Shown: positions 3,526-31,984 of the stretch, piece after piece
How positions within the stretch are numbered: position 1 is the stretch's first letter
Layout: each line of letters begins with the position of its first letter
Source of the DNA: a virus
Lineage: Duplodnaviria; Heunggongvirae; Uroviricota; Caudoviricetes
Virus record (IMG/VR): IMGVR_UViG_2534682327_000012
DNA length: 31,984 nt
Strand: one strand, 5' to 3'
Position numbers and translations under genes: made by a program
The notes under the pieces: model-generated
The model's input: the letters and a program-made list of their open reading frames with translations, nothing else
Database searches by the model: none
Told to the model about the DNA's origin: nothing

Positions 3526-5800
3526 AGCCTCCGGGCATTTTGTCCCTCCGTCAGCATTTGCTGCAGGCACCGGTAAGGCGTTTACCGGTGCTTATGCATG
3601 GAACGCGCCACGCGAGGCTGTCGGGCGCGAAAGACCCCTTACACGTGACGAGATGCGTCAGGTGCAAGGTGTTTTATCCACGATTAACCGCCTGCCTTAC
3701 TTTTTGCGCTCGCTGTTTACGTCACGCTATGACTACATCCGGCGCAATAAAAGCCCGGTGCACGGGTTTTATTTCCTCACATCCACTTTTCAGCGTCGTT
3801 TATGGCCGCGCATTGAGCGTGTGAATCAGCGCCATGAAATGAACACCGACGCGTCGATGCTGTTTCTGGCTGAGCGTGACCACTATGCGCGCCTGCCGGG
3901 AATGAATGACAAGGAGCTGAAAAAGTTTGCCGCCCGTATCTCATCGCAGCTTTTCATGATGTATGAGGAACTCAGCGATGCCTGGGTGGATGCGCATGGC
4001 GAAAAAGAATCACTGTTTACGGATGAGGCTCAGGCTCACCTGTATGGTCATGTTGCTGGCGCTGCACGAGCTTTCAATATTTCCCCTCTCTACTGGAAAA
4101 AATACCGTAAAGGACAGATGACCACGAGGCAGGCATATTCTGCCATTGCCCGTCTGTTTAACGATGAGTGGTGGACTCATCAGCTTAAAGGCCAGCGTAT
4201 GCGCTGGCATGAAGCGTTACTGATAGCTGTCGGGGAGGTCAATAAAGACCGTTCTCCTTATGCCAGTAAACACGCCATTCGTGATGTGCGTGCGCGCCGC
4301 CAGGCAAATCTGGAATTTCTTAAATCGTGTGATCTCGAAAACAGGGAAACCGGCGAGCGCATCGACCTTATCAGTAAGGTGATGGGCAGTATTTCTAATC
4401 CTGAAATTCGCCGGATGGAGCTGATGAACACCATTGCTGGTATTGAGCGTTACGCCGCAGCAGAGGGTGATGTGGGGATGTTTATCACGCTCACCGCGCC
4501 GTCAAAGTATCACCCGACACGTCAGGTTGGAAAAGGCGAAAGTAAAACCGTCCAGCTAAATCACGGCTGGAACGATGAGGCATTTAATCCAAAGGATGCG
4601 CAGCGTTATCTCTGCCGTATCTGGAGCCTGATGCGCACGGCATTCAAGGATAATGATTTACAGGTCTACGGTTTGCGTGTCGTCGAGCCACACCACGACG
4701 GAACGCCGCACTGGCATATGATGCTTTTTTGTAATCCGCGCCAGCGTAACCAGATTATCGAAATCATGCGTCGCTATGCGCTCAAAGAGGATGGCGACGA
4801 AAGAGGAGCCGCGCGAAACCGTTTTCAGGCGAAACACCTTAATCGGGGCGGTGCTGCGGGGTATATCGCGAAATACATCTCAAAAAACATCGACGGCTAT
4901 GCACTGGATGGTCAGCTCGATAACGATACCGGTAAGCCGCTTAAAGATACTGCCGCGGCTGTTACTGCATGGGCGTCAACGTGGCGCATCCCGCAATTTA
5001 AAACGGTTGGTCTGCCGACAATGGGGGCTTACCGTGAACTACGCAAATTGCCGCGCGGCGTCAGCATTGCTGATGAGTTTGACGAGCGCGTCGAGGCTGC
5101 ACGCGCCGCCGCAGACAGTGGTGATTTTGCGTTGTATATCAGCGCGCAGGGTGGGGCAAATGTCCCGCGCGATTGTCAGACTGTCAGGGTCGCCCGTAGC
5201 CCGTCGGATGACGTTAACGAGTACGAGGAAGAGGTCGAGAGAGTGGTCGGCATTTACGCGCCGCATCTCGGCGCGCGTCATATTCATATCACCAGAACGA
5301 CGGACTGGCGCATTGTGCCGAAAGTTCCGGTCGTTGAGCCTTTGACTTTAAAAAGCGGCATCGCCGCGCCTCGGAGTCCTGTCAATAACTGTGGAAAGCT
5401 CACTGGTGGTGATACTTCGTTACCGGCTCCCACACCTTCTGAACACGCCGCAGCAGTGCTTAATCTGGTTGATGACGGTGTTATCGAATGGAATGACCCG
5501 GAGGTCGTGAGGGGGCTCAGGGGCGCATTAAAACACGGCCTGAGAACACCAAATCGTCAGCAAAGAAACGGAAGCCCGCTAAAACCACATGAAATTGCAC
5601 CATCGGCCAGGCTGACCCGGCCGGAACGATTGCAAATTACCCGTATCCGCGTTGACCTTGCTCAGAACGGTATCAGGCCTCAGCGATGGGAGCTTGAGGC
5701 GCTGGCGCGTGGCGCGACCGTAAATTATGACGGGAAAAAATTCACGTATCCGGTCGCTGATGAGTGGCCGGGATTCTCAACAGTAATGGAGTGGAAATGA
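3515..5800 (+). CDS. A: Replication initiation protein A (rolling-circle HUH endonuclease), 761 aa
   Basis: Translation from MAVKASGHFVPPSAFAAGTGK matches P2 gpA as I recall it; HUH motif TPHWHMMLF and Tyr motif AAGYIAKYISKNIDGY present; the track ORF begins 14 codons upstream at 3473, but the ATG at 3515 gives the P2-like N-terminus. Confidence 0.93.
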   Translation: MAVKASGHFVPPSAFAAGTGKAFTGAYAWNAPREAVGRERPLTRDEMRQVQGVLSTINRLPYFLRSLFTSRYDYIRRNKSPVHGFYFLTSTFQRRLWPRIERVNQRHEMNTDASMLFLAERDHYARLPGMNDKELKKFAARISSQLFMMYEELSDAWVDAHGEKESLFTDEAQAHLYGHVAGAARAFNISPLYWKKYRKGQMTTRQAYSAIARLFNDEWWTHQLKGQRMRWHEALLIAVGEVNKDRSPYASKHAIRDVRARRQANLEFLKSCDLENRETGERIDLISKVMGSISNPEIRRMELMNTIAGIERYAAAEGDVGMFITLTAPSKYHPTRQVGKGESKTVQLNHGWNDEAFNPKDAQRYLCRIWSLMRTAFKDNDLQVYGLRVVEPHHDGTPHWHMMLFCNPRQRNQIIEIMRRYALKEDGDERGAARNRFQAKHLNRGGAAGYIAKYISKNIDGYALDGQLDNDTGKPLKDTAAAVTAWASTWRIPQFKTVGLPTMGAYRELRKLPRGVSIADEFDERVEAARAAADSGDFALYISAQGGANVPRDCQTVRVARSPSDDVNEYEEEVERVVGIYAPHLGARHIHITRTTDWRIVPKVPVVEPLTLKSGIAAPRSPVNNCGKLTGGDTSLPAPTPSEHAAAVLNLVDDGVIEWNDPEVVRGLRGALKHGLRTPNRQQRNGSPLKPHEIAPSARLTRPERLQITRIRVDLAQNGIRPQRWELEALARGATVNYDGKKFTYPVADEWPGFSTVMEWK

Positions 5801-6252
5801 TGGCAAAAATTCACGAGGTAAAGCTGCACGCAAAATATTTTGACCTTGTGCTGGAAGGAAAGAAACGCGCAGAGTTTCGGAAAAATGACCGTAATTATGA
5901 GCGCGGGGACACGTTGATTTTGCATGAATGGGTGCAGGGTGTGTTTACGGGGCGAAAGGTTGAAGCCCGGATAACAGATGTTACTGACCTGTCAGACTGG
6001 CTGGAAGACTATGTCTTGCTAAGTATTGAGCTGCTTAATACAGGCGCATATGAGATTGTGAACTGGAAAGAACTTAGTGAGCGTGGCCTGGTATTCAGAA
6101 TTAATCATGAAATTATGCATCAGCTCGGCCTTGCTGTTATGTATGAACCAGAGACGGGGATGTCTGGCGGGGCAATGGTCGCCACGGATGGAGCATGGAA
6201 CTATTCAGATGAACAGATGGAGCGTGCACAGCAAAACGGGTGGCTTGGATAA
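5797..6252 (+). CDS. ASCH/PUA-like small protein (DUF3850-like), ~151 aa
   Basis: ATG overlaps the A stop; N-terminus KIHEVKLHAKYFDLVLEGKKRAEFRKNDRNYERGDTLILHEW resembles the DUF3850/ASCH family as I remember it (domain call moderate). Confidence 0.7.
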   Translation: MMAKIHEVKLHAKYFDLVLEGKKRAEFRKNDRNYERGDTLILHEWVQGVFTGRKVEARITDVTDLSDWLEDYVLLSIELLNTGAYEIVNWKELSERGLVFRINHEIMHQLGLAVMYEPETGMSGGAMVATDGAWNYSDEQMERAQQNGWLG

Positions 6253-6530: not shown

Positions 6531-7265
6531 CTATTTATTAAAAAATTCTAGAAGTGTAATTCCATTGGCTCCAAGGCTTACAAAGCCTTCAATACTATTA
6601 ATTGATGTGATTGTCTTTTTCAGAATGTTCTTTAGCTTTGAGCCTTCTTCGGTCGTAGTTATTACTTCGTTAAATTGCTCAGACATACAAGCATGCCCCA
6701 TTGTGGCTTCTGTTGCTGAAATTATTGGCTCAATACCAGTTATTTCATAGTCGTCAAAAGCTCTAATCATGTTGTCAATGTAATATAATATTTCTTTTTT
6801 TAGGTTAATTGGGAAGTCAGAATTAATTATGGATTCCTTCAGTTCTAATAATTGCCCCTTTATTTCAATTAACTGTTCATCTTTAAGTTTTCCAATCTGA
6901 CCTTTGGTCTTGAATAGGACTGATATCATCCCTAATTCATTTATGGCATTATCAGAGATTCTTTGGAGGGAATGGGACAGAGATTCTCCCAGATTTAAGT
7001 TTTCGAAAAAATCATTAACACTGGGCCTCCAGTGTGGTGCTGTGATTTCATCTTCTGGAAAGTAGTCTTTTAATGTGTTATCTATTTTTTTAGGCAAGCT
7101 CATGATTTTGGAAATCTTATCCCATAAGATGGTTTTATTATCTTCAGAACCCTCTAATTCAAACATTTGTAATAAAGCACGCTTTACCGTAATGTTATAT
7201 GGTTGTTGTGCTTTTAGCTTGGTGAAAAACTCTCGTAAGGTCAGTGCTGAATTGTCGATGTACAT
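6531..7265 (-). CDS. Low-GC cargo protein of unknown function in the tin/old slot, 244 aa
   Basis: Long uninterrupted ORF on the strand opposite the early operon, visibly AT-rich compared with flanking phage core; sits between gene A and cos where P2 carries tin/old; no motif I can recognise. Confidence 0.75.
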   Translation of the reverse strand: MYIDNSALTLREFFTKLKAQQPYNITVKRALLQMFELEGSEDNKTILWDKISKIMSLPKKIDNTLKDYFPEDEITAPHWRPSVNDFFENLNLGESLSHSLQRISDNAINELGMISVLFKTKGQIGKLKDEQLIEIKGQLLELKESIINSDFPINLKKEILYYIDNMIRAFDDYEITGIEPIISATEATMGHACMSEQFNEVITTTEEGSKLKNILKKTITSINSIEGFVSLGANGITLLEFFNK

Positions 7266-7655: not shown

Positions 7656-8690
7656 TCAGCCGTTGTCAGTGTCCAGTGAGTAGTTTTTAAATCGGATGAC
7701 CTCCTGACCGAGCCAGCCGTTTATCTCGCGGATCCTGTCCTGTAACGGGATAAGCTCATTGCGGACAAAGACCTTTGCTACTTTCTCAATATCGCCCAGC
7801 GACCCGACGTTCTCCGGTTTGCCGCCCATCAACTGAAAGGGGATGCGGTGCGCGTCCAGCAGGTCTGCGGCACTGGCTTTTTTGATATTAAAAAAATCGT
7901 CCTTCGTCGCCACTTCACTGAGCGGGATAATTTTAATGCCGTCGGCTTTTCCCTGCGGGGCATAGAGAAACAGGTTTTTAAAGTTGTTGCGGCCTTTCGA
8001 TTTCACCATGTTTTCGCGAAGCATTTCGATATCGTTGCGATCCTGCACGGCATCGGTGACGTACATGATGTATCCGGCATGTGCGCCGTTTTCGTAATAC
8101 TTGCGGCGGAACAGCGTGGCCGACTCATTCAGCCAGGCAGAGTTAAGGGCGCTGAGATATTCCGGCAGGCCGTACAGCTCCTGATTAATATCCGGCTCCA
8201 GCAGGTGAAACACGGAGCCGGGCGCGAAAGGTGTCGGCTCGTTGAAGGACGGCACCCACCAGTAAACATCCTCCTCAACACCACGGCGGGGATATTTTGC
8301 CGGTGAGGTTTCCAGTCTGATGACCTTACCGGTGGTGCTGTAGCGCTTTTCCAGAAACGCATTACCGAACACCAGAAAATCCAGCACAAAGCGGCTGAAA
8401 TCCTGCTGGGAAAGCCACGGATGCGGGATAAATGTCGAGGCCAGAATATTGCGTTTAACGTAAATCGGTGAGCTGTGATGCACGGCAGCACGCAGGCTTT
8501 TTGCCAGACCGGTAAAGCTGATTGGTGGCTCATACCATCTGCCGTTACTGATGCATTCGACGTAATCCAGAATGTCACGGCGGTCGAGTACCGGCACCGG
8601 CTCACCAAAGGTGAATGCCTCCATTTTCGGGGCGCTGGCGGTCATTGTTTTTGCCGCAGGTTGCGGTGTTTTCCCTTTTTTCTTGCTCAT
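7656..8690 (-). CDS. Q: Portal protein Q, 344 aa
   Basis: Position adjacent to cos and upstream-overlapping P (ATGA overlap on the minus strand); size and P2 gene order. Confidence 0.92.
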   Translation of the reverse strand: MSKKKGKTPQPAAKTMTASAPKMEAFTFGEPVPVLDRRDILDYVECISNGRWYEPPISFTGLAKSLRAAVHHSSPIYVKRNILASTFIPHPWLSQQDFSRFVLDFLVFGNAFLEKRYSTTGKVIRLETSPAKYPRRGVEEDVYWWVPSFNEPTPFAPGSVFHLLEPDINQELYGLPEYLSALNSAWLNESATLFRRKYYENGAHAGYIMYVTDAVQDRNDIEMLRENMVKSKGRNNFKNLFLYAPQGKADGIKIIPLSEVATKDDFFNIKKASAADLLDAHRIPFQLMGGKPENVGSLGDIEKVAKVFVRNELIPLQDRIREINGWLGQEVIRFKNYSLDTDNG

Positions 8691-12625: not shown

Positions 12626-13369
12626 ATGACGAGTCCCGCACAGCGCCACATGATGCGGGTCTCGGCAGCGATGACCGCGCAGCGGGAAGCCGCCCCGCTG
12701 CGACATGCAACTGTCTATGAGCAGATGCTGGTTAAGCTCGCCGCAGACCAGCGCACACTGAAAGCGATTTATTCAAAAGAGCTGAAGGCCGCGAAAAAAC
12801 GCGAACTGCTGCCGTTCTGGTTGCCGTGGGTGAACGGCGTGCTGGAGCAGGGCAAAGGTGCACAGGATGACATTCTGATGACGGTCATGCTGTGGCGTCT
12901 GGATACCGGCGATATTGCCGGTGCGCTGGAGATTGCCCGTTATGCCCTGAAGTACGGTCTGACCATGCCGGGTAAACACCGCCGTACCCCGCCGTACATG
13001 TTCACCGAGGAGGTGGCGCTTGCGGCCATGCGCGCTCACGCTGCCGGTGAGTCTGTGGATACCCGCCTGCTGACGGAGACCCTCGAACTGACCGCCACGG
13101 CTGACATGCCTGATGAAGTGCGCGCAAAGCTGCACAAAATCACCGGTCTGTTTCTGCGTGACGATGGTGATGCCGCCGGTGCGCTGGCGCACCTGCAACG
13201 TGCGACACAGCTCGACTGTCAGGCAGGCGTCAAAAAAGAGATTGAACGACTGGAGCGGGAGCTGAAACCGAAGCCGGAGCCGCAGCCAAAAGCGGCCACC
13301 CGTACCCCGCGTAAGACCCGGAGCGTGACACCGGCAAAACGTGGACGCCCGAAAAAGAAAGCCAGTTAA
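12626..13369 (+). CDS. M: Terminase small (endonuclease) subunit M, 247 aa
   Basis: Size and position after N; basic C-terminal tail. Confidence 0.9.
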   Translation: MTSPAQRHMMRVSAAMTAQREAAPLRHATVYEQMLVKLAADQRTLKAIYSKELKAAKKRELLPFWLPWVNGVLEQGKGAQDDILMTVMLWRLDTGDIAGALEIARYALKYGLTMPGKHRRTPPYMFTEEVALAAMRAHAAGESVDTRLLTETLELTATADMPDEVRAKLHKITGLFLRDDGDAAGALAHLQRATQLDCQAGVKKEIERLERELKPKPEPQPKAATRTPRKTRSVTPAKRGRPKKKAS

Positions 13370-13468
13370 CAACCGAATGCGCCCCGCGCCAGGGCGGCAC
13401 GCCGGTCAGTGAGAGTGAATCACCTGACACTGTACCGGCGTCCACCGCCCGACTTTTCAGAGGTAGTC

Positions 13469-14184: not shown

Positions 14185-14466
14185 ATGACAGCAGAAGAAA
14201 AAAGCGTCCTGTCGCTTTTCATGATTGGGGTGCTGATTGTTGTCGGCAAGGTGCTTGCCGGTGGTGAACCCATCACCCCGCGTCTGTTTATCGGGCGCAT
14301 GTTGCTCGGTGGTTTTGTCTCGATGGTTGCCGGTGTTGTTCTGGTGCAGTTTCCTGACCTGTCACTGCCTGCAGTGTGCGGCATCGGCTCCATGCTGGGT
14401 ATCGCCGGTTATCAGGTGATTGAGATTGCCATTCAGCGCCGCTTTAAGGGCAGGGGGAAACCGTAA
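14185..14466 (+). CDS. Y: Holin Y, 93 aa
   Basis: Small protein with hydrophobic transmembrane segments directly upstream of the endolysin. Confidence 0.85.
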   Translation: MTAEEKSVLSLFMIGVLIVVGKVLAGGEPITPRLFIGRMLLGGFVSMVAGVVLVQFPDLSLPAVCGIGSMLGIAGYQVIEIAIQRRFKGRGKP

Positions 14467-14963
14467 TGCCGGTAATTAACACGCATCAGAATATCGCCGC
14501 CTTTCTCGACATGCTGGCGGTATCCGAAGGGACGGCGAATCATCCGCTGACGAAAAACCGTGGCTATGACGTGATAGTCACCGGACTGGACGGGAAGCCG
14601 GAAATTTTCACCGACTACAGTGACCACCCGTTCGCACATGGCCGACCGGCGAAGGTGTTTAACCGTCGCGGTGAAAAATCCACGGCCTCCGGTCGCTATC
14701 AGCAGCTTTACCTGTTCTGGCCGCACTACCGCAAACAGCTTGCCCTGCCGGATTTCAGTCCGTTGTCACAGGACAGACTCGCCATTCAGTTGATCCGCGA
14801 ACGCGGTGCACTGGATGACATCCGGGCGGGACGCATTGAGCGCGCCATTTCACGCTGTCGCAATATCTGGGCGTCCCTGCCGGGTGCCGGTTACGGTCAG
14901 CGTGAGCATTCACTGGAAAAACTGGTCACCGTCTGGCGTACCGCTGGCGGCGTACCGGCTTAA
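14466..14963 (+). CDS. K: Endolysin K (lysozyme-like), 165 aa
   Basis: Position after the holin and P2 gene order; ATGA-type overlap with Y. Confidence 0.88.
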   Translation: MPVINTHQNIAAFLDMLAVSEGTANHPLTKNRGYDVIVTGLDGKPEIFTDYSDHPFAHGRPAKVFNRRGEKSTASGRYQQLYLFWPHYRKQLALPDFSPLSQDRLAIQLIRERGALDDIRAGRIERAISRCRNIWASLPGAGYGQREHSLEKLVTVWRTAGGVPA

Positions 14964-14977
14964 ACGGAGTAAACACC

Positions 14978-15403
14978 ATGAAGAAATTATCCCTTTCACT
15001 GACGCTGAACGTGTCGCTGGCGCTGATGCTGGCACTGTCCCTGATTTACCCGCAGAGCGTGGCCGTTAATTTTGTCGCCGCCTGGGCGATTATGGCGACG
15101 GTTATCTGTGTGGTTGCCGGTGGTGTCGGCATGTATGCCACTGAGTATGTACTGGAACGCTACGGGCGGGAGCTGCCGCCGGAATCGCTGGCCGTGAAGA
15201 TTGTCACGTCGCTGTTTTTGCAGCCGGTGCCGTGGCGCAGACGGGCGGCGGCTCTGGTAGTGATGGTGGCGACGTTTATCTCGCTGGTCGCTGCCGGGTG
15301 GATTTTTACTGCGCTGATTTATCTCGTGGCGTCGCTGTTTTTCCGGCTGATACGTAAAGCCTGTCGTCAGCGTCTTGAGGGGCGGGAACTATGTCAAAGC
15401 TGA
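14978..15403 (+). CDS. lysA: LysA lysis-timing membrane protein, 141 aa
   Basis: Highly hydrophobic multi-TM protein after K, as in P2. Confidence 0.8.
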   Translation: MKKLSLSLTLNVSLALMLALSLIYPQSVAVNFVAAWAIMATVICVVAGGVGMYATEYVLERYGRELPPESLAVKIVTSLFLQPVPWRRRAAALVVMVATFISLVAAGWIFTALIYLVASLFFRLIRKACRQRLEGRELCQS

Positions 15404-15816
15404 TGATTGTGCTGGTCGTGTTGTTATCGCTGGCGGTTACCGGTCTGTTTCTGGTGAAACACAAAAATGCCAGCCTGCGCGCCTCGCTGGACAGGGCGAA
15501 TAACGTCGCCAGTGAACAGCAGACGACCATCACCATGCTGAAAAATCAGCTTCATGTTGCCCTCACCAGGGCAGACAAAAACGAGCTGGCGCAGGTGGCA
15601 CTGCGTCAGGAACTGGAGAACGCCGCGAAGCGTGAAGCACAGCGCGAGAAAACCATCACGAGGTTACTCAATGAAAACGAAGATTTTCGCCGCTGGTACG
15701 GCGCTGACCTGCCTGATGTTGTGCGCCGGTTGCACCAGCGTCCGGCCTGCACCGACGCCAGTGATTGTCGCCAACGCCTGCCCGAAAGTGAGCCTTTGCC
15801 CGATGCCGGGCAGTGA
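15391..15816 (+). CDS. lysB: LysB (Rz-like inner-membrane spanin), 141 aa
   Basis: N-terminal TM segment then coiled-coil-like region; position after lysA. Confidence 0.8.
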   Translation: MSKLMIVLVVLLSLAVTGLFLVKHKNASLRASLDRANNVASEQQTTITMLKNQLHVALTRADKNELAQVALRQELENAAKREAQREKTITRLLNENEDFRRWYGADLPDVVRRLHQRPACTDASDCRQRLPESEPLPDAGQ

Positions 15817-15961
15817 CCCGCAGACGAACGGCGATTTAAGTGCCGATATCCGGCAGCTTGAGAACGCGCTGGCACGCTGTGCCAGCCAGGTAAAAATGAT
15901 TAAACACTGTCAGGACGAAAACGATGCTCAAACCCGACAGCCTGCGCAGGGCGCTGACTGA
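15671..15961 (+). CDS. lysC: LysC (Rz1-like outer-membrane lipoprotein spanin), 96 aa, embedded out of frame in lysB and extending into R
   Basis: ATG at 15671 in an alternative frame; signal peptide ending in lipobox LMLCAGC; Pro-rich mature part; classic embedded/overlapping spanin architecture. Confidence 0.7.
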   Translation: MKTKIFAAGTALTCLMLCAGCTSVRPAPTPVIVANACPKVSLCPMPGSDPQTNGDLSADIRQLENALARCASQVKMIKHCQDENDAQTRQPAQGAD

Positions 15962-16391
15962 TGCCGTCACGGTGCTGAAAACTAACCCCGATATGCTGCG
16001 GATATTCGTGGATAACGGGAGTATTGCCTCCACACTGGCGGCGTCGCTGTCATTCGAAAAGCGTTACACGCTCAATGTCATTGTGACCGACTTTACCGGT
16101 GATTTTGACCTGCTCATCGTGCCGGTGCTGGCGTGGCTGCGGGAAAATCAGCCCGACATCATGACCACCGACGCAGGCCAGAAAAAGGGCTTCACGTTTT
16201 ATGCAGACATCAACAATGACAGCAGCTTTGATATCAGTATCAGCCTGATGCTGACCGAGCGCACGCTGGTCAGTGAGGTTGACGGTGCGCTGCATGTGAA
16301 GAATATCCCGGAACCCACGCCGCCGGAGCCGGTCACCCGCCCGATGGAGCTTTATATCAATGGCGAACTGGTGAGCAAGTGGGATGAATGA
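15924..16391 (+). CDS. R: Tail completion protein R, 155 aa
   Basis: Size and position in P2 gene order. Confidence 0.88.
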   Translation: MLKPDSLRRALTDAVTVLKTNPDMLRIFVDNGSIASTLAASLSFEKRYTLNVIVTDFTGDFDLLIVPVLAWLRENQPDIMTTDAGQKKGFTFYADINNDSSFDISISLMLTERTLVSEVDGALHVKNIPEPTPPEPVTRPMELYINGELVSKWDE

Positions 16392-16907: not shown

Positions 16908-17693
16908 TTATGAGTGATTTTTATTTGATGCTTTGTATTCTACAACCTTCTTATTGGCGTAAAGGAATTTTGTATATGACAGGAATATAACCAGACCTGA
17001 AATGAAATAGATGAGGGATATTATTAATAATGCTTTTTTTTGGCTGTTATTATCTTTAATCTCCTGACTTAACCATTCCGAGTCCTCCTCGTTTAGCTGT
17101 AAGAGCTTATTGCAGGCGATCTCAGGAAGTGTGTCTTTTATAAATACGTTTCGTAGCCTCTTGCAATCGGCAAGGCTATAAGTTTTATTGAATTCAACTG
17201 CTTTATTCTTGAAGGATAAGAGAACTTTGTCACTATAAACATAGTACATCATGTTTTTATATGGTATGCCTATGGCATCCCTTACTATAACGGATTGTTC
17301 GTTGTGTATGTAACATGCGAGGAGAATGCAAAAAATACTGGACAGAATTACAATTATTGTTTTAATTATGTGTGGTGTTTTTGTTATGTCACCCCAGATG
17401 CGAGTAAGGAAAAAACACGATGTTTTTAGTTTTCCATCAATCAGTCCCTGCTGTATCATTCTCACATTTTCAATGCCTGATACATTGATTCCGTTAATTA
17501 TTTTAAATAGTTGAATGTCGCGCCACTCGCGGTCAAGTCTTTTTAATTTTTTGTCTGAATACCCAAAATTGAAATAATGTGCAATAAGCCTCATAAGGTT
17601 ACTTTTACCAAAGCTAAAAAATGCTAATACTGCAAAGCTACAAAGGAAAAAAACGATTAGCCCCCACACATTAGTCACATTATAGCTGACCAT
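16908..17693 (-). CDS. Low-GC cargo membrane protein of unknown function in the orf30 slot, 261 aa
   Basis: Strong RBS AAGGAG 6 nt upstream of the ATG (minus strand); three hydrophobic segments (N-terminal, central, C-terminal); AT-rich; on the strand opposite the late tail operon. Confidence 0.8.
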   Translation of the reverse strand: MVSYNVTNVWGLIVFFLCSFAVLAFFSFGKSNLMRLIAHYFNFGYSDKKLKRLDREWRDIQLFKIINGINVSGIENVRMIQQGLIDGKLKTSCFFLTRIWGDITKTPHIIKTIIVILSSIFCILLACYIHNEQSVIVRDAIGIPYKNMMYYVYSDKVLLSFKNKAVEFNKTYSLADCKRLRNVFIKDTLPEIACNKLLQLNEEDSEWLSQEIKDNNSQKKALLIISLIYFISGLVIFLSYTKFLYANKKVVEYKASNKNHS

Positions 17694-20202: not shown

Positions 20203-22497
20203 ATGAGCACAAAATTCAGAACCGTTATCACCACTGCCGGTGCAGCAAAGCTGGCAGCGGCAACCGCACCGGGAGGGCGGAAGGTCAACATTACCACGAT
20301 GGCCGTCGGGGATGGCGGTGGTAAATTGCCTGTCCCGGATGCCGGACAGACCGGGCTTATCCACGAAGTCTGGCGACATACGCTGAACAAAATCAGCCAG
20401 GACAAACGAAACAGTAATTATATTATCGCAGAGCTGGTTATTCCGCCGGAGGTGGGCGGTTTCTGGATGCGTGAGCTTGGCCTGTACGATGATGCGGGAA
20501 CGTTAATTGCCGTGGCGAACATGGCCGAAAGTTATAAGCCAGCTCTTGCCGAAGGCTCAGGGCGTTCGCAGACCTGTCGCATGGTCATCATCGTCAGCAG
20601 TGTGGCCTCGGTGGAGCTGACCATTGACACCACAACGGTGATGGCGACACAGGATTACGTTGATGACAAAATTGCAGAGCACGAACAGTCACGACGTCAC
20701 CCGGACGCCTCGCTGACCGCAAAAGGTTTTACTCAGTTAAGCAGTGCGACCAACAGCACGTCTGAAACACTGGCCGCAACGCCGAAAGCGGTAAAGGCCG
20801 CCTATGACCTTGCTAACGGGAAATATACCGCACAGGACGCTACCACTGCGCGAAAAGGTCTTGTCCAGCTCAGTAGTGCCACCAACAGCACGTCTGAAAC
20901 GCTTGCGGCAACGCCAAAGGCGGTTAAGACAGCGTATGACCTTGCTAACGGGAAATACACTGCACAGGACGCCACTACAGCGCGAAAAGGTCTTGTCCAG
21001 CTCAGTAGCGCCACCAACAGCGATTCTGAAACGCTTGCGGCAACACCAAAGGCGGTTAAGACAGCGTATGACCTTGCTAACGGGAAATACACTGCACAGG
21101 ATGCCACCACAGCGCGAAAAGGTCTTGTCCAGCTAAGTAGTGCCATCAACAGCGATTCTGAAACGCTGGCCGCAACGCCAAAAGCAGTGAAGTCTGCCTA
21201 TGACAATGCTGAAAAACGTCTTCAGAAAGATCAGAACGGTGCGGATATTCCGGGAAAGGATACCTTCACGAAAAATATCGGTGCCTGTCGTGCTTATAGC
21301 GGCGCTTTGAGCACTGAAGCCGGAAACTGGACAACCGCTCAGTTTATTGAATGGCTGGATTCCCGTGGTGCATTTAATCATCCGTACTGGATGTGCAAAG
21401 GCTCCTGGTCATATGCAAATAACAAAATCATTACGGATACCGGATGTGGTGATATCCACCTGGCTGGTTGTGTCGTCGAGGTCATGGGAACTAAATCTGC
21501 AATCACTATCCGAGTGACCACGCCAACAACATCAAGCGGTGGCGGTACAACCAGCGCGCAATTCACTTACATAAATCATGGGGACGGCTACTCCCCCGGC
21601 TGGCGTCGTGACTGGAATCGTCAGGGCGACTCAATGACCGGAACGATTAATCAGGATGGCGGAAGCCAGAATGCCTATATGTCTACGGCCTTATGTTCAG
21701 GCACCAGAGGCGGCAAAAAATATCTCAGAAAGTTTCGTGGTGGAGAAGGAGATACTATCTGGCATGAAACAGTTCAGGGCGGGGTAATTCGCTGGGCGAC
21801 AGGAAACAATGACGCTCAGGAAGAATTATCACTCAGCTCCGCTTATGGTCTCCGTTCAAGAGGTGAAATTACATCACTCAGTGCTAATGGTCTGCGCATT
21901 GCTTATGGCAATTATGGATTCTTTATCAGGAATGATGGCGGCAGCACATATTTAATGCTGACGGCCTCTGGCGATAAATTTGGGACATGGAACGGCTTAA
22001 GACCGCTGACTATCAATAACGCCAATGGCGGAGTGTCAATGGGGCATGGCCTGAGTGTTACAGGTGATATTGTCTCAAGTACCAAAGTACGTGCCGGTAG
22101 CGGGAAAAAGTTCACGGTCAGCAGCAGCAATACATCCACGAAGGAAGCCGCATTCAATTTGTGGGGAAACTCAAGTCGTCCTGTGGTGGCTGAATTAGGT
22201 GATGATGCAGGCTGGCATTTTTACAGTCAGAGAAATACAGATAACAGCATCACTTTTGCTGTTAACGGGCAGGTATCACCATCTAACTATAGTAATTTTG
22301 ATTCCCGTTATGTACGCGATATCCGGCTTGGGACTCGAGTTGTCCAGACCATGAAGAAAGGGGGGATGTATGAGAAAGCAGGGCACGTAATTACCGGGCT
22401 TGGTATTATCGGTGAAGTCGATGGTGATGACCCCGCAGTATTCAGACCAATACAAAAATACATCAATGGCACATGGTATAACGTCGCACAGGTGTAA
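20203..22497 (+). CDS. H: Tail fibre protein H, 764 aa, with an internal tandem repeat array
   Basis: Conserved N-terminal part MSTKFRTVITTAGAAKLAAATAPGG; Ser/Thr/Gly-rich C-terminal receptor-binding part; followed by tail fibre assembly gene G. Confidence 0.9.
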   Translation: MSTKFRTVITTAGAAKLAAATAPGGRKVNITTMAVGDGGGKLPVPDAGQTGLIHEVWRHTLNKISQDKRNSNYIIAELVIPPEVGGFWMRELGLYDDAGTLIAVANMAESYKPALAEGSGRSQTCRMVIIVSSVASVELTIDTTTVMATQDYVDDKIAEHEQSRRHPDASLTAKGFTQLSSATNSTSETLAATPKAVKAAYDLANGKYTAQDATTARKGLVQLSSATNSTSETLAATPKAVKTAYDLANGKYTAQDATTARKGLVQLSSATNSDSETLAATPKAVKTAYDLANGKYTAQDATTARKGLVQLSSAINSDSETLAATPKAVKSAYDNAEKRLQKDQNGADIPGKDTFTKNIGACRAYSGALSTEAGNWTTAQFIEWLDSRGAFNHPYWMCKGSWSYANNKIITDTGCGDIHLAGCVVEVMGTKSAITIRVTTPTTSSGGGTTSAQFTYINHGDGYSPGWRRDWNRQGDSMTGTINQDGGSQNAYMSTALCSGTRGGKKYLRKFRGGEGDTIWHETVQGGVIRWATGNNDAQEELSLSSAYGLRSRGEITSLSANGLRIAYGNYGFFIRNDGGSTYLMLTASGDKFGTWNGLRPLTINNANGGVSMGHGLSVTGDIVSSTKVRAGSGKKFTVSSSNTSTKEAAFNLWGNSSRPVVAELGDDAGWHFYSQRNTDNSITFAVNGQVSPSNYSNFDSRYVRDIRLGTRVVQTMKKGGMYEKAGHVITGLGIIGEVDGDDPAVFRPIQKYINGTWYNVAQV
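20722..21204 (+). repeat. In-frame 132-bp (44-aa) tandem repeat, about 3.7 copies, within H (unit KGLVQLSSATNSTSETLAATPKAVKTAYDLANGKYTAQDATTAR)
   Basis: Copies begin at 20722, 20854, 20986 and 21118; copies 2 and 3 are nearly identical at the DNA level. Confidence 0.9.
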
Positions 22498-23416: not shown

Positions 23417-23944
23417 ATGGACTGGAAAGATCTTGCATCAACCGCTGTGTATACAGGTATGACTGATGAAAATGAAAGCATATGGGAACGTGTTGATGGG
23501 GTTGACGTTGCCTTCATAGGTGCCTTTCTTACTGCGCACTTGAGCCTTGAAAAGTATATTACTGATTATCTTGGATTAAGATATCCTTCGTTAGCTTGGG
23601 GTGATGCAAAACTCACATTTTCACAAAAAATAGCTTTAATACAACATGAGCCTGCAAAACCCCCTTATGATGAAATATATTTAAGAATAAAAGACTTTAA
23701 CAGCATAAGAAATAAAATCAGTCATCAATTGAATTATCAGATTACGGATAAAGAAAAAAGTAAGTTTGTGGACTTCTATATGAAGATTACTAAAGCCAGT
23801 AAAACTAAACCAAATATTGATATTGATAACATGGCAGATTTGTTGGGTTTTTTCGTATCGATGACAAAATCCTATTTTGCTAGTGCTATTTCTTATTATC
23901 ATTATAATAAAAAGGTTGCAGGTAAAAGTAATAAAATTGATTAA
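23417..23944 (+). CDS. Low-GC cargo protein in the Z/fun slot, 175 aa; candidate HEPN-like RNase (motif R98-N-K-I-S-H103)
   Basis: RBS AAGGA ~7 nt upstream of the ATG; AT-rich; RNKISH encoded at 23708..23725 fits the HEPN Rx4-6H motif with the usual Asn after Arg; a terminator follows downstream. Confidence 0.75.
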   Translation: MDWKDLASTAVYTGMTDENESIWERVDGVDVAFIGAFLTAHLSLEKYITDYLGLRYPSLAWGDAKLTFSQKIALIQHEPAKPPYDEIYLRIKDFNSIRNKISHQLNYQITDKEKSKFVDFYMKITKASKTKPNIDIDNMADLLGFFVSMTKSYFASAISYYHYNKKVAGKSNKID

Positions 23945-29382: not shown

Positions 29383-30545
29383 TGCTGGATGCGCTGACAT
29401 TTGATGCAGGCAGTACGCTGACGCCGGATTACATGCTGATGCTCGACAGCAGGGATATTACCGGCAATATCAGCGACCGTCTGATGAGCATGACCCTGAC
29501 GGATAACCGGGGCTTTGAGGCTGACCAGCTTGATATTGAACTGAACGATGCCGACGGGCAGGTCGGGCTGCCGGTTCGTGGCGCTGTCCTGACGGTGTAT
29601 ATCGGCTGGAAAGGTTTTGCCCTGGTATGCAAAGGGAAATTTACCGTTGATGAGGTTGAACACCGGGGCGCACCGGATGTAGTCACCATCCGCGCCCGGA
29701 GTGCAGATTTTCGCGGGACGCTCAATTCCCGCCGGGAAGGCTCCTGGCATGACACCACGCTCGGTGCGATTGTTAAGGCGATAGCCACCCGTAACAGGCT
29801 GGAAGCCAGTGTCGCTCCGTCACTGGCCGGAATTAAAATCCCGCACATCGACCAGTCGCAGGAGTCTGATGCGAAATTCCTGACCCGTCTTGCAGAACGC
29901 AACGGCGGTGAGGTGTCGGTAAAAATGGGAAAACTGTTGTTTCTCAAAGCGGGGCAGGGGGTGACGGCCAGCGGTAAAAAAATCCCGCAGGTCACCATCA
30001 CCCGCAGCGACGGCGACCGCCATCATTTTGCGATTGCTGACCGTGGAGCCTATACCGGCGTAACGGCAAAGTGGTTACACACCAAAGACCCGAAGCCGCA
30101 AAAGCAGAAGGTAAAACTGAAACGCAAAAAGAAAGAAAAACACCTGCGCGCACTGGAGCACCCGAAAGCAAAACCGGTCAGGCAGAAGAAAGCGCCAAAA
30201 GTACCGGAAGCGCGCGAAGGTGAATACATGGCCGGTGAGGCTGACAACGTTTTTGCCCTGACCACGGTATATGCCACGAAAGCACAGGCCATGCGTGCCG
30301 CTCAGGCGAAGTGGGATAAACTGCAACGGGGCGTTGCGGAGTTCTCCATCAGCCTGGCTACCGGTCGTGCTGATATTTACACGGAAACACCGGTTAAAGT
30401 ATCAGGCTTTAAGCGCGTCATAGACGAGCAGGACTGGACAATCACTAAGGTGACACATTTTCTGAATAATAGCGGCTTCACGACGTCCTTAGAGCTTGAG
30501 GTCAGGCTTTCTGATGTGGAGTACGAAACAGAAGATGATGAGTGA
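29382..30545 (+). CDS. D: Tail protein D, 387 aa
   Basis: TAATG overlap with U; size and order. Confidence 0.88.
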   Translation: MLDALTFDAGSTLTPDYMLMLDSRDITGNISDRLMSMTLTDNRGFEADQLDIELNDADGQVGLPVRGAVLTVYIGWKGFALVCKGKFTVDEVEHRGAPDVVTIRARSADFRGTLNSRREGSWHDTTLGAIVKAIATRNRLEASVAPSLAGIKIPHIDQSQESDAKFLTRLAERNGGEVSVKMGKLLFLKAGQGVTASGKKIPQVTITRSDGDRHHFAIADRGAYTGVTAKWLHTKDPKPQKQKVKLKRKKKEKHLRALEHPKAKPVRQKKAPKVPEAREGEYMAGEADNVFALTTVYATKAQAMRAAQAKWDKLQRGVAEFSISLATGRADIYTETPVKVSGFKRVIDEQDWTITKVTHFLNNSGFTTSLELEVRLSDVEYETEDDE

Positions 30546-30882: not shown

Positions 30883-30973
30883 TGGTCGATGTGGACGCTA
30901 TGTGGACAGCGGTTGACATAAATCCATTTATATCATCAGGTTAGGTGCTTTTTTTTGACACCATCCCTGTCTT

Positions 30974-31000
30974 CCCCCACATGATGTGGGGGTTTTTTTT
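30974..31000 (+). terminator. Strong hairpin CCCCCACAT-g-ATGTGGGGG followed by T8; terminator at or near the prophage/host junction
   Basis: Perfect inverted repeat and 8-T run seen directly; could be a host terminator or part of the att region. Confidence 0.65.
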
Positions 31001-31081
31001 ATCCTCAATTTGCCTGCTGCTTAATGCATTGCAGATGATTTGCTTCCGTTATACTAGCGTCAGTTGATAGCGGGAGTATTT

Positions 31082-31984
31082 ATGAATCAATCTTATGGAC
31101 GGCTGGTCAGTCGGGCGGCGATTGCTGCGACGGCGATGGCTTCGTTGCTATTGCTGATTAAAATTTTTGCATGGTGGTATACCGGGTCGGTGAGTATTCT
31201 CGCCGCGCTGGTGGATTCGCTGGTGGATATCGGCGCGTCGTTGACGAATTTACTGGTGGTGCGATATTCCCTGCAACCTGCCGACGATAATCACTCGTTT
31301 GGTCACGGTAAAGCAGAGTCCCTCGCGGCGCTGGCGCAAAGTATGTTTATCTCCGGTTCGGCACTATTCCTGTTTTTGACGGGTATTCAACATCTGATAT
31401 CTCCAACACCGATGACAGATCCAGGCGTCGGGGTTATCGTGACAATTGTGGCGCTAATTTGTACGATTATCCTTGTCTCGTTTCAGCGTTGGGTGGTGCG
31501 CCGGACGCAAAGCCAGGCGGTGCGGGCTGATATGCTACATTACCAGTCTGATGTTATGATGAACGGCGCAATTCTGCTGGCGCTGGGGTTGTCCTGGTAC
31601 GGCTGGCATCGCGCCGATGCTCTGTTTGCATTGGGAATCGGCATCTATATTTTATATAGCGCGTTACGCATGGGATATGAGGCGGTACAGTCATTACTGG
31701 ATCGCGCATTGCCTGATGAGGAACGGCAAGAAATTATTGATATCGTGACTTCCTGGCCGGGTGTTAGCGGCGCTCACGATCTTCGCACGCGGCAGTCAGG
31801 GCCGACCCGCTTTATTCAGATTCATTTGGAAATGGAAGACTCTCTGCCTTTGGTTCAGGCACATATGGTGGCGGATCAGGTAGAGCAGGCTATTTTACGG
31901 CGTTTTCCGGGATCGGATGTAATTATCCATCAGGACCCCTGTTCCGTCGTACCCAGGGAGGGTAAACGGTCTATGCTTTCATAA
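31082..31984 (+). CDS. fieF: Host cation-diffusion-facilitator Fe/Zn efflux transporter FieF (YiiP), 300 aa
   Basis: Translation [54 protein letters not shown]... recognised as enterobacterial FieF; the track ORF starts at an upstream TTG, the ATG at 31082 gives the known N-terminus; stop at the window end. Confidence 0.93.

Follow-up and report, generated by a model that had tools for sequence, protein, structure and literature searches.

The window analyzed here, which is the whole 31,984-nucleotide stretch of DNA, is an integrated P2-type prophage that begins with int on the left and extends to ogr and an attachment site near 30935, and it is collinear with P2 at ~97% identity, known variable regions excepted. 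The lysC gene has the same place as in P2, within a Y-K-lysA-lysB-lysC-R-S operon, and closes a series of lysis genes that opens with holin Y and continues with endolysin K, lysA and lysB (Table 1). The upstream lysis cassette was placed by its open reading frames together with the P2 annotation at the same relative positions, with 97.6% collinear identity to P2, and lysA matches NF038378. The R gene lies outside the spanin and sets the boundary of the lysC overlap.

The ATG of lysC (15671-15673) opens a run of 96 sense codons closed by a TGA that ends at 15961, and its translation is MKTKIFAAGTALTCLMLCAGCTSVRPAPTPVIVANACPKVSLCPMPGSDPQTNGDLSADIRQLENALARCASQVKMIKHCQDENDAQTRQPAQGAD. With lysB as the reference, lysC is in the +1 frame, and R in turn is +1 to lysC, which puts lysC at -1 with respect to R. 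The gene starts within lysB, overlaps it by 146 nt and ends 145 nt beyond the lysB stop, having entered R by 38 nt. The final 146 nt of lysB double as the code for LysC residues 1-48 and part of codon 49, and the first 38 nt of R encode LysC residues 85-96 and the stop codon; between these two overlaps lies the only DNA that lysC does not share with a neighbor. The start and the 96-codon frame given in the initial annotation were confirmed by sequence and translation, as were its overlaps with both neighboring genes, and the string LMLCAGC that it reported is found at LysC residues 15-21. The lysC gene is real, intact and correctly delimited, and it is ordinary relative to P2.

Table 1. Features at and around lysC (window coordinates)
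Feature	Coordinates	Strand	Details
Upstream lysis cassette	14185..15403	+	holin Y 14185-14466, endolysin K 14466-14963, lysA 14978-15403
lysB, Rz-like i-spanin partner	15391..15816	+	141 aa; N-terminal transmembrane segment
GAGG Shine-Dalgarno of lysC	15660..15663	+	7 nt upstream of ATG
lysC, o-spanin (predicted Rz1-like outer-membrane lipoprotein precursor)	15671..15961	+	96 aa
LysC signal peptide (predicted), residues 1-20	15671..15730	+	n-region K2/K4, h-region I5-L17, lipobox L17-C18-A19-G20
Mature LysC (predicted)	15731..15958	+	76 aa
Stretch coded by lysC alone, lysB stop to R start	15817..15923	+	107 nt
Hairpin within lysC	15868..15886	+	8-bp, GC-rich; equivalent to P2 'putative transcription attenuator, O operon'
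R, tail completion gene	15924..16391	+	P2 R annotated at equivalent position; collinear with P2

Several other loci of the prophage depart from P2. Positions 1-1770, which hold the integrase, the immunity repressor and cox, are 72-79% similar to P2 or unrelated, and the immunity and integration module differs from P2's own. At the other end, P2 similarity stops near 30935, just beyond ogr, and 30935-31984 is a flank that marks the host junction; from 31064 it encodes what we take, by eye, to be a FieF/YiiP-like cation-efflux protein. At the position of the P2 tin/old anti-phage locus there is an AT-rich 244-aa ORF (6531-7265, minus strand; phrog_15904, function not known) without Pfam or PADLOC match, a candidate cargo or defense gene in a variable locus. 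Another variable cargo locus is a segment of ~900 bp that replaces P2 Z/fun between the tail-fiber assembly gene G and the sheath gene FI; its 175-aa ORF (23417-23944, plus strand; phrog_5483, function not known) likewise had no match in Pfam or PADLOC. A homolog of P2 orf30 (16908-17693, minus strand; 261 aa, AT-rich, membrane-like, phrog_2407) is situated between S and V and marks a third variable spot, since E. coli 0-4 (L012) has a second P2-type prophage copy from which it is missing. The 162-aa protein encoded at 5764-6252 (plus strand), at the P2 orf91 position on the edge of P2 similarity, has ASCH/DUF3850 and DUF7415 domains. Within the tail-fiber gene H, a 132-nt tandem repeat (20743-21204; 3.5 copies, 89% match) has copies that all align by local blastn to a single P2 stretch, 13252-13461.

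Family membership and conservation of the lysC frame

LysC matches two family models over their full lengths, scoring 127.1 bits against NCBIfam NF038368 ('Rz1-like lysis system protein LysC'; profile positions 1-85 of 85) and 62.2 bits against Pfam PF23793 (LysC; 1-69 of 69), where the cut-off is 27 bits for either model. It also matches phrog_456 and phrog_952, both 'Rz-like spanin'. Its neighbor LysB scores 172.9 bits against TIGR03495 (cut-off 92.75), matches phrog_89, another 'Rz-like spanin' group, and begins with ~22 strongly hydrophobic residues (hydropathy 2.5-3.4). The frame is almost certainly lysC, its product being the o-spanin that pairs with LysB in the two-component spanin of a P2-type (Peduovirus) prophage, and the earlier identification of an Rz1-like lipoprotein partner of lysB is borne out by the agreement of the family models with P2 orthology.

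The lysC gene of the window is already known, as the ortholog of P2 lysC. In the comparison with P2 that the initial annotation had proposed as a check, P2 LysC (AAM83596.1 / NP_757382.1), also of 96 aa, was 95% identical to the window protein over all 96 residues, and the gene (8202-8492 of the P2 record) had the same overlaps; the 801 bp around the window lysC are 97% identical to P2. The two genes share the GAGG Shine-Dalgarno context, a start in the +1 frame that precedes the lysB stop by 146 nt, and the 38-nt overlap with R, and the two proteins share the LCAG lipobox followed by Cys and the four periplasmic cysteines. They differ by five substitutions, K2R, A11V, V24A, R25P and A34P (window residue, position, P2 residue), all of which fall in the part of LysC that overlaps lysB. 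Orf28 of phage 186 and gp12 of PSP3 (Eganvirus) are also 96 aa long and 71-72% identical, their genes have the same geometry, and they retain the conserved cysteine pattern; the 186 protein differs in its lipobox, CVGC.

By tblastn, the lysC frame was found in 273 phage records, with identities from 99% to ~35%, in phages of Klebsiella, Yersinia, Salmonella, Burkholderia, Pseudomonas (phiCTX) and Shewanella, the ~35% level being that of phiCTX, Burkholderia and Shewanella. Conservation of the frame thus extends over the Peduoviridae, down to ~35% identity. Base-by-base inspection of nine relatives found the frame open in every one, with its start inside the LysB homolog, a lipobox at the same place and an end 8-62 nt into the R homolog. 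A frame not conserved in related phages, the outcome that had been named as fatal to the gene, is thus not what the 273 records and the nine relatives show. In an alignment of 10 diverse LysC sequences, C21, C37, C43 and C70 are invariant, C80 is present in nine and G20 is nearly invariant; the most variable part is the C-terminal tail, which is encoded in the R overlap.

The pattern of nucleotide substitution is that of a coding sequence. When the 107 nt coded by lysC alone are compared with phage 186, 33 positions differ, and the third position of the lysC codon accounts for 19 of these (binomial p=0.0036); the same bias is seen in an R-only, single-coding control (67 of 125). In the same comparison, the dual-coding stretch has diverged by 20.5% versus ~29% for single-coding DNA (p=0.04). 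The wobble bias, the lower divergence of the dual-coding DNA and the conserved frame and cysteines together show that the LysC protein is under purifying selection. The lysC-only stretch also contains a hairpin whose P2 counterpart is annotated at 8399-8417 and is identical in sequence, and a 51-nt segment that includes it (15855-15905) folds at -16.4 kcal/mol (z = -2.4). We rejected this hairpin as the cause of the conservation of the stretch; the fold is modest, a T-run was looked for at the hairpin and is absent, and the P2-type hairpin is not conserved in phages 186 or PSP3. The conservation is explained by protein coding.

It is vanishingly improbable that the alternative frame is a chance opening in GC-rich coding DNA from which no protein is made. 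Long stop-free stretches in alternative frames are indeed commonplace here, with 87 stop-to-stop frames of at least 96 codons in the window. The scores of LysC against curated models, however, lie far above their cut-offs, the protein is conserved down to 35% identity in other genera, the lipobox cysteine and three further cysteines are invariant, the substitutions in the lysC-only stretch are wobble-biased and a Shine-Dalgarno sequence stands at the correct spacing before the ATG. In P2, moreover, lysC was genetically defined, according to the passages of PMC3091744 and PMC3556154 that refer to Markov et al. 2004. The chance-frame reading is already effectively refuted. The window contains 411 frames that open with ATG and reach 40 aa or more; a relaxed lipoprotein-signal pattern was matched by two of them, one of which is lysC. 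The other (30050-30229, minus strand), which runs antisense to the tail gene D, probably matches by chance.

Signal peptide, start codon and public annotation

The N-terminus of LysC has the organization that the initial annotation had described as a signal peptide with lipobox, namely K2 and K4, an uncharged hydrophobic core and L-C-A-G immediately before C21, and its homologs align with it. Cleavage by signal peptidase II is predicted before C21 (codon 15731-15733). The lipobox is non-canonical in having Cys at -3, and LysC fails the strict patterns [LVI][ASTVI][GAS]C and [ILMFTV][^REKD][GAS]C as well as a PROSITE PS51257-like rule. This failure was not counted against a lipoprotein because canonical lipoboxes align at the same column, where homologs have LSGC, LAGC, FAGC, LCAC or CVGC. 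For the P2 family, the supplements of PMC6139136 (Kongari et al.) list an 'LCAG' lipobox, a 20-residue signal, a 76-residue mature form and four periplasmic cysteines; the predicted lipidation of C21 rests on this published annotation together with the family alignment. Two other cysteines, C18 (with Leu at -1) and C14 (with Thr at -1), were rejected as lipidation sites, neither being conserved as a lipobox.

The N-terminal half of mature LysC is proline-rich, with seven prolines (P26, 28, 30, 38, 44, 46 and 50), and the C-terminal half consists of a proline-free segment followed by a single distal proline, P91. Its four periplasmic cysteines are C37, C43, C70 and C80. A lipoprotein that lacks Asp at +2 goes to the outer membrane via Lol; the +2/+3 residues of LysC are T22/S23, with no Asp inner-membrane retention signal, and by the Asp+2 rule sorting to the outer membrane is predicted. 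The protein fits the anatomy described for P2-type outer-membrane spanins, a Pro-rich N-terminal part and a helical C-terminal part (PMC3556154).

Public records use three different starts for lysC: the ATG at 15671, Met16 and Met45. The E. coli 0-4 record begins lysC at Met16, for a product of 81 aa (L012 1917-2162), and the OU784750 record begins it at Met45, for a product of 52 aa (L013 433-591); with either start the signal peptide is lost. There is only a very slim chance that lysC is a real gene that starts at Met16 (ATG 15716) and specifies an 81-aa product without a signal peptide. Met16 is the PGAP/RefSeq start in strain 0-4, whose DNA is 100% identical over the 801 bp compared, and the annotation of OU784750 begins even further down, but no Shine-Dalgarno-like sequence precedes 15716, whereas GAGG lies 7 nt before 15671. 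A Met16 start would leave just five residues ahead of the lipobox cysteine, which cannot serve as a signal peptide, and it would discard residues 1-15, which carry the n- and h-regions and are conserved across the family, with G9 and L15 invariant and C14 nearly invariant. The NF038368 profile alignment begins already at residue 4, and the upstream ATG is the start used for P2 in GenBank and RefSeq and in the curated spanin database of PMC6139136. For fiAA91-ss, a P2-family member, that database gives the same GAGG as the o-spanin Shine-Dalgarno sequence.

A longer LysC product is excluded by a stop codon that lies four codons upstream of the homologous ATG in 186 and PSP3. We rejected a 135-aa ORF from the ATG at 15554, which would add a charged N-terminal extension, lies outside the family profile and is closed in both of these phages. 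The ATG at 15671, as chosen in the initial annotation, is the right start codon on the grounds of its Shine-Dalgarno sequence, the conservation of the family and the upstream stop in 186 and PSP3.

The statement that such a gene is typically missed holds in part. The L-413C and S164 records do not annotate lysC, and the 0-4 and OU784750 records start it late, but P2 lysC is annotated in full in both GenBank and RefSeq. The 801-bp lysC-centered query is present in ~29% of the complete E. coli genomes searched (1570 of 5426), and 12 of the 12 E. coli matches listed carry the annotation 'lysC: Rz1-like lysis system protein LysC'. As of 2018, 196 of 528 spanin systems lacked an identified o-spanin, and in 64 its start had been called wrongly (PMC6139136). 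Family HMMs now catch lysC routinely, sometimes with a truncated start.

Overlapped architecture and relation to other spanins

Spanin gene pairs are classed by their arrangement, the paradigms being P2 lysB/lysC for 'overlapped', lambda Rz/Rz1 for 'embedded' and the T4 pair for 'separated' (PMC6139136, PMC3556154). An overlapped pair is one whose o-spanin gene, in a different frame, has its start within the i-spanin gene and its end beyond the stop of that gene (PMC6139136, PMC3556154), and this is the arrangement of lysB/lysC in the window. An embedded o-spanin gene lies wholly within the i-spanin gene. Since lysC ends at 15961, past the lysB stop at 15816, the pair is overlapped rather than embedded, and the term used in the initial annotation for an Rz/Rz1-like arrangement has to be corrected. 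Nor is the overlap with two genes special to the window: it recurs in each of the nine relatives examined, and the extension of lysC into R is the P2 arrangement given in the passage of PMC3091744 that cites Markov et al. 2004.

Like LysC, lambda Rz1 is a small Pro-rich outer-membrane lipoprotein encoded in the +1 frame inside an i-spanin gene (PMC6139136, PMC3091744), and the two proteins would play the same part in the final lysis step. They differ in that Rz1 is wholly inside Rz and lysC passes lysB into the next gene. No sequence similarity is detectable between them; the lambda Rz1 family is absent from the Pfam scan of LysC at E<=0.01, which returned PF23793 (LysC) as its sole family. 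LysC has four periplasmic cysteines versus one in Rz1 and is lower in proline. Mature lambda Rz1 is ~40 aa long, and mature LysC, with 76 aa, is about twice that length. The T4 PseT.3/PseT.2 pair (separated) and T1 gp11 (unimolecular) belong to the same functional class of proteins that disrupt the outer membrane at lysis (PMC6139136). Unlike lysB/lysC, the T4 genes do not overlap, and unlike LysB/LysC, T1 gp11 combines a lipobox and a C-terminal TMD in a single protein.

Proposed function of LysC and the V24-R25 allele

The fusion mechanism of spanins has been worked out mainly for lambda Rz/Rz1. P2 lysB and lysC together reportedly complement lambda Rz/Rz1 null mutants, and lysC itself is said to have been defined by gor suppressors of an rpoC mutant. 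By analogy with lambda Rz/Rz1 and P2 LysB/LysC, the LysC protein of the window would be located in the outer membrane, bind LysB and take part in membrane fusion.

A sequence of steps can be proposed. Translation of LysC would start independently at the GAGG-ATG inside lysB. The precursor would then follow the course of lipoprotein biogenesis, in which it would be exported by Sec, diacylglycerylated at C21 by Lgt, cut after G20 by signal peptidase II (LspA) and acylated at its new N-terminus by Lnt, and the 76-residue protein would be carried by the Lol pathway to the inner leaflet of the outer membrane. There its periplasmic domain would bind that of LysB at the C-terminal end; LysB would be held in the inner membrane by its N-terminal helix, so that the complex would span the periplasm through the peptidoglycan mesh. 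The four periplasmic cysteines of LysC probably form disulfide bonds that stabilize the complex, as in lambda Rz/Rz1. Once holin Y had released endolysin K and the wall had been degraded, the LysB/LysC complexes would be free to move and change shape. The overlap of lysB and lysC saves coding space and links both subunits genetically.

It is highly unlikely that LysC is mainly a regulator of lysis timing rather than a structural subunit for membrane fusion. The P2 record does describe it as 'non-essential; regulation of lysis', and 'lysis regulatory protein' is the term in many phage records. The protein nevertheless has the anatomy of an o-spanin, with the signal of an outer-membrane lipoprotein, an N-terminal TMD in its overlapped partner and a gene that comes last in the lysis cassette, and current curated resources class LysC as an o-spanin. 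A non-essential gene that affects timing also fits the laboratory phenotype of lambda Rz/Rz1, which are non-essential and affect timing when no divalent cations are added. The regulatory and o-spanin roles are not mutually exclusive.

At window positions 15740-15745, LysC has V24-R25 in the place of A24-P25 in P2, so that the first proline of mature P2 LysC is replaced. It seems improbable that V24-R25 is a natural lysis-timing allele, or that the Cys-rich signal peptide (C14, C18 and C21) and its CAG-Cys lipobox reflect a peculiarity of processing; we regard both as candidates. A passage of PMC3556154 cites Markov et al. on lysC alleles. The V24-R25 allele is also present in phage record OU784750 (Peduovirus P2), and V-R occupies positions 24-25 in Klebsiella and Salmonella relatives, which makes an ordinary neutral polymorphism the most likely explanation, likelier than a timing allele.

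Beyond correct annotation the lysC frame matters little, and the practical point is the calling of its start codon. With lysC, the lysis set of the prophage is complete, comprising holin, endolysin, LysA, i-spanin and o-spanin, and the complete cassette speaks for a prophage that is still able to lyse its host.
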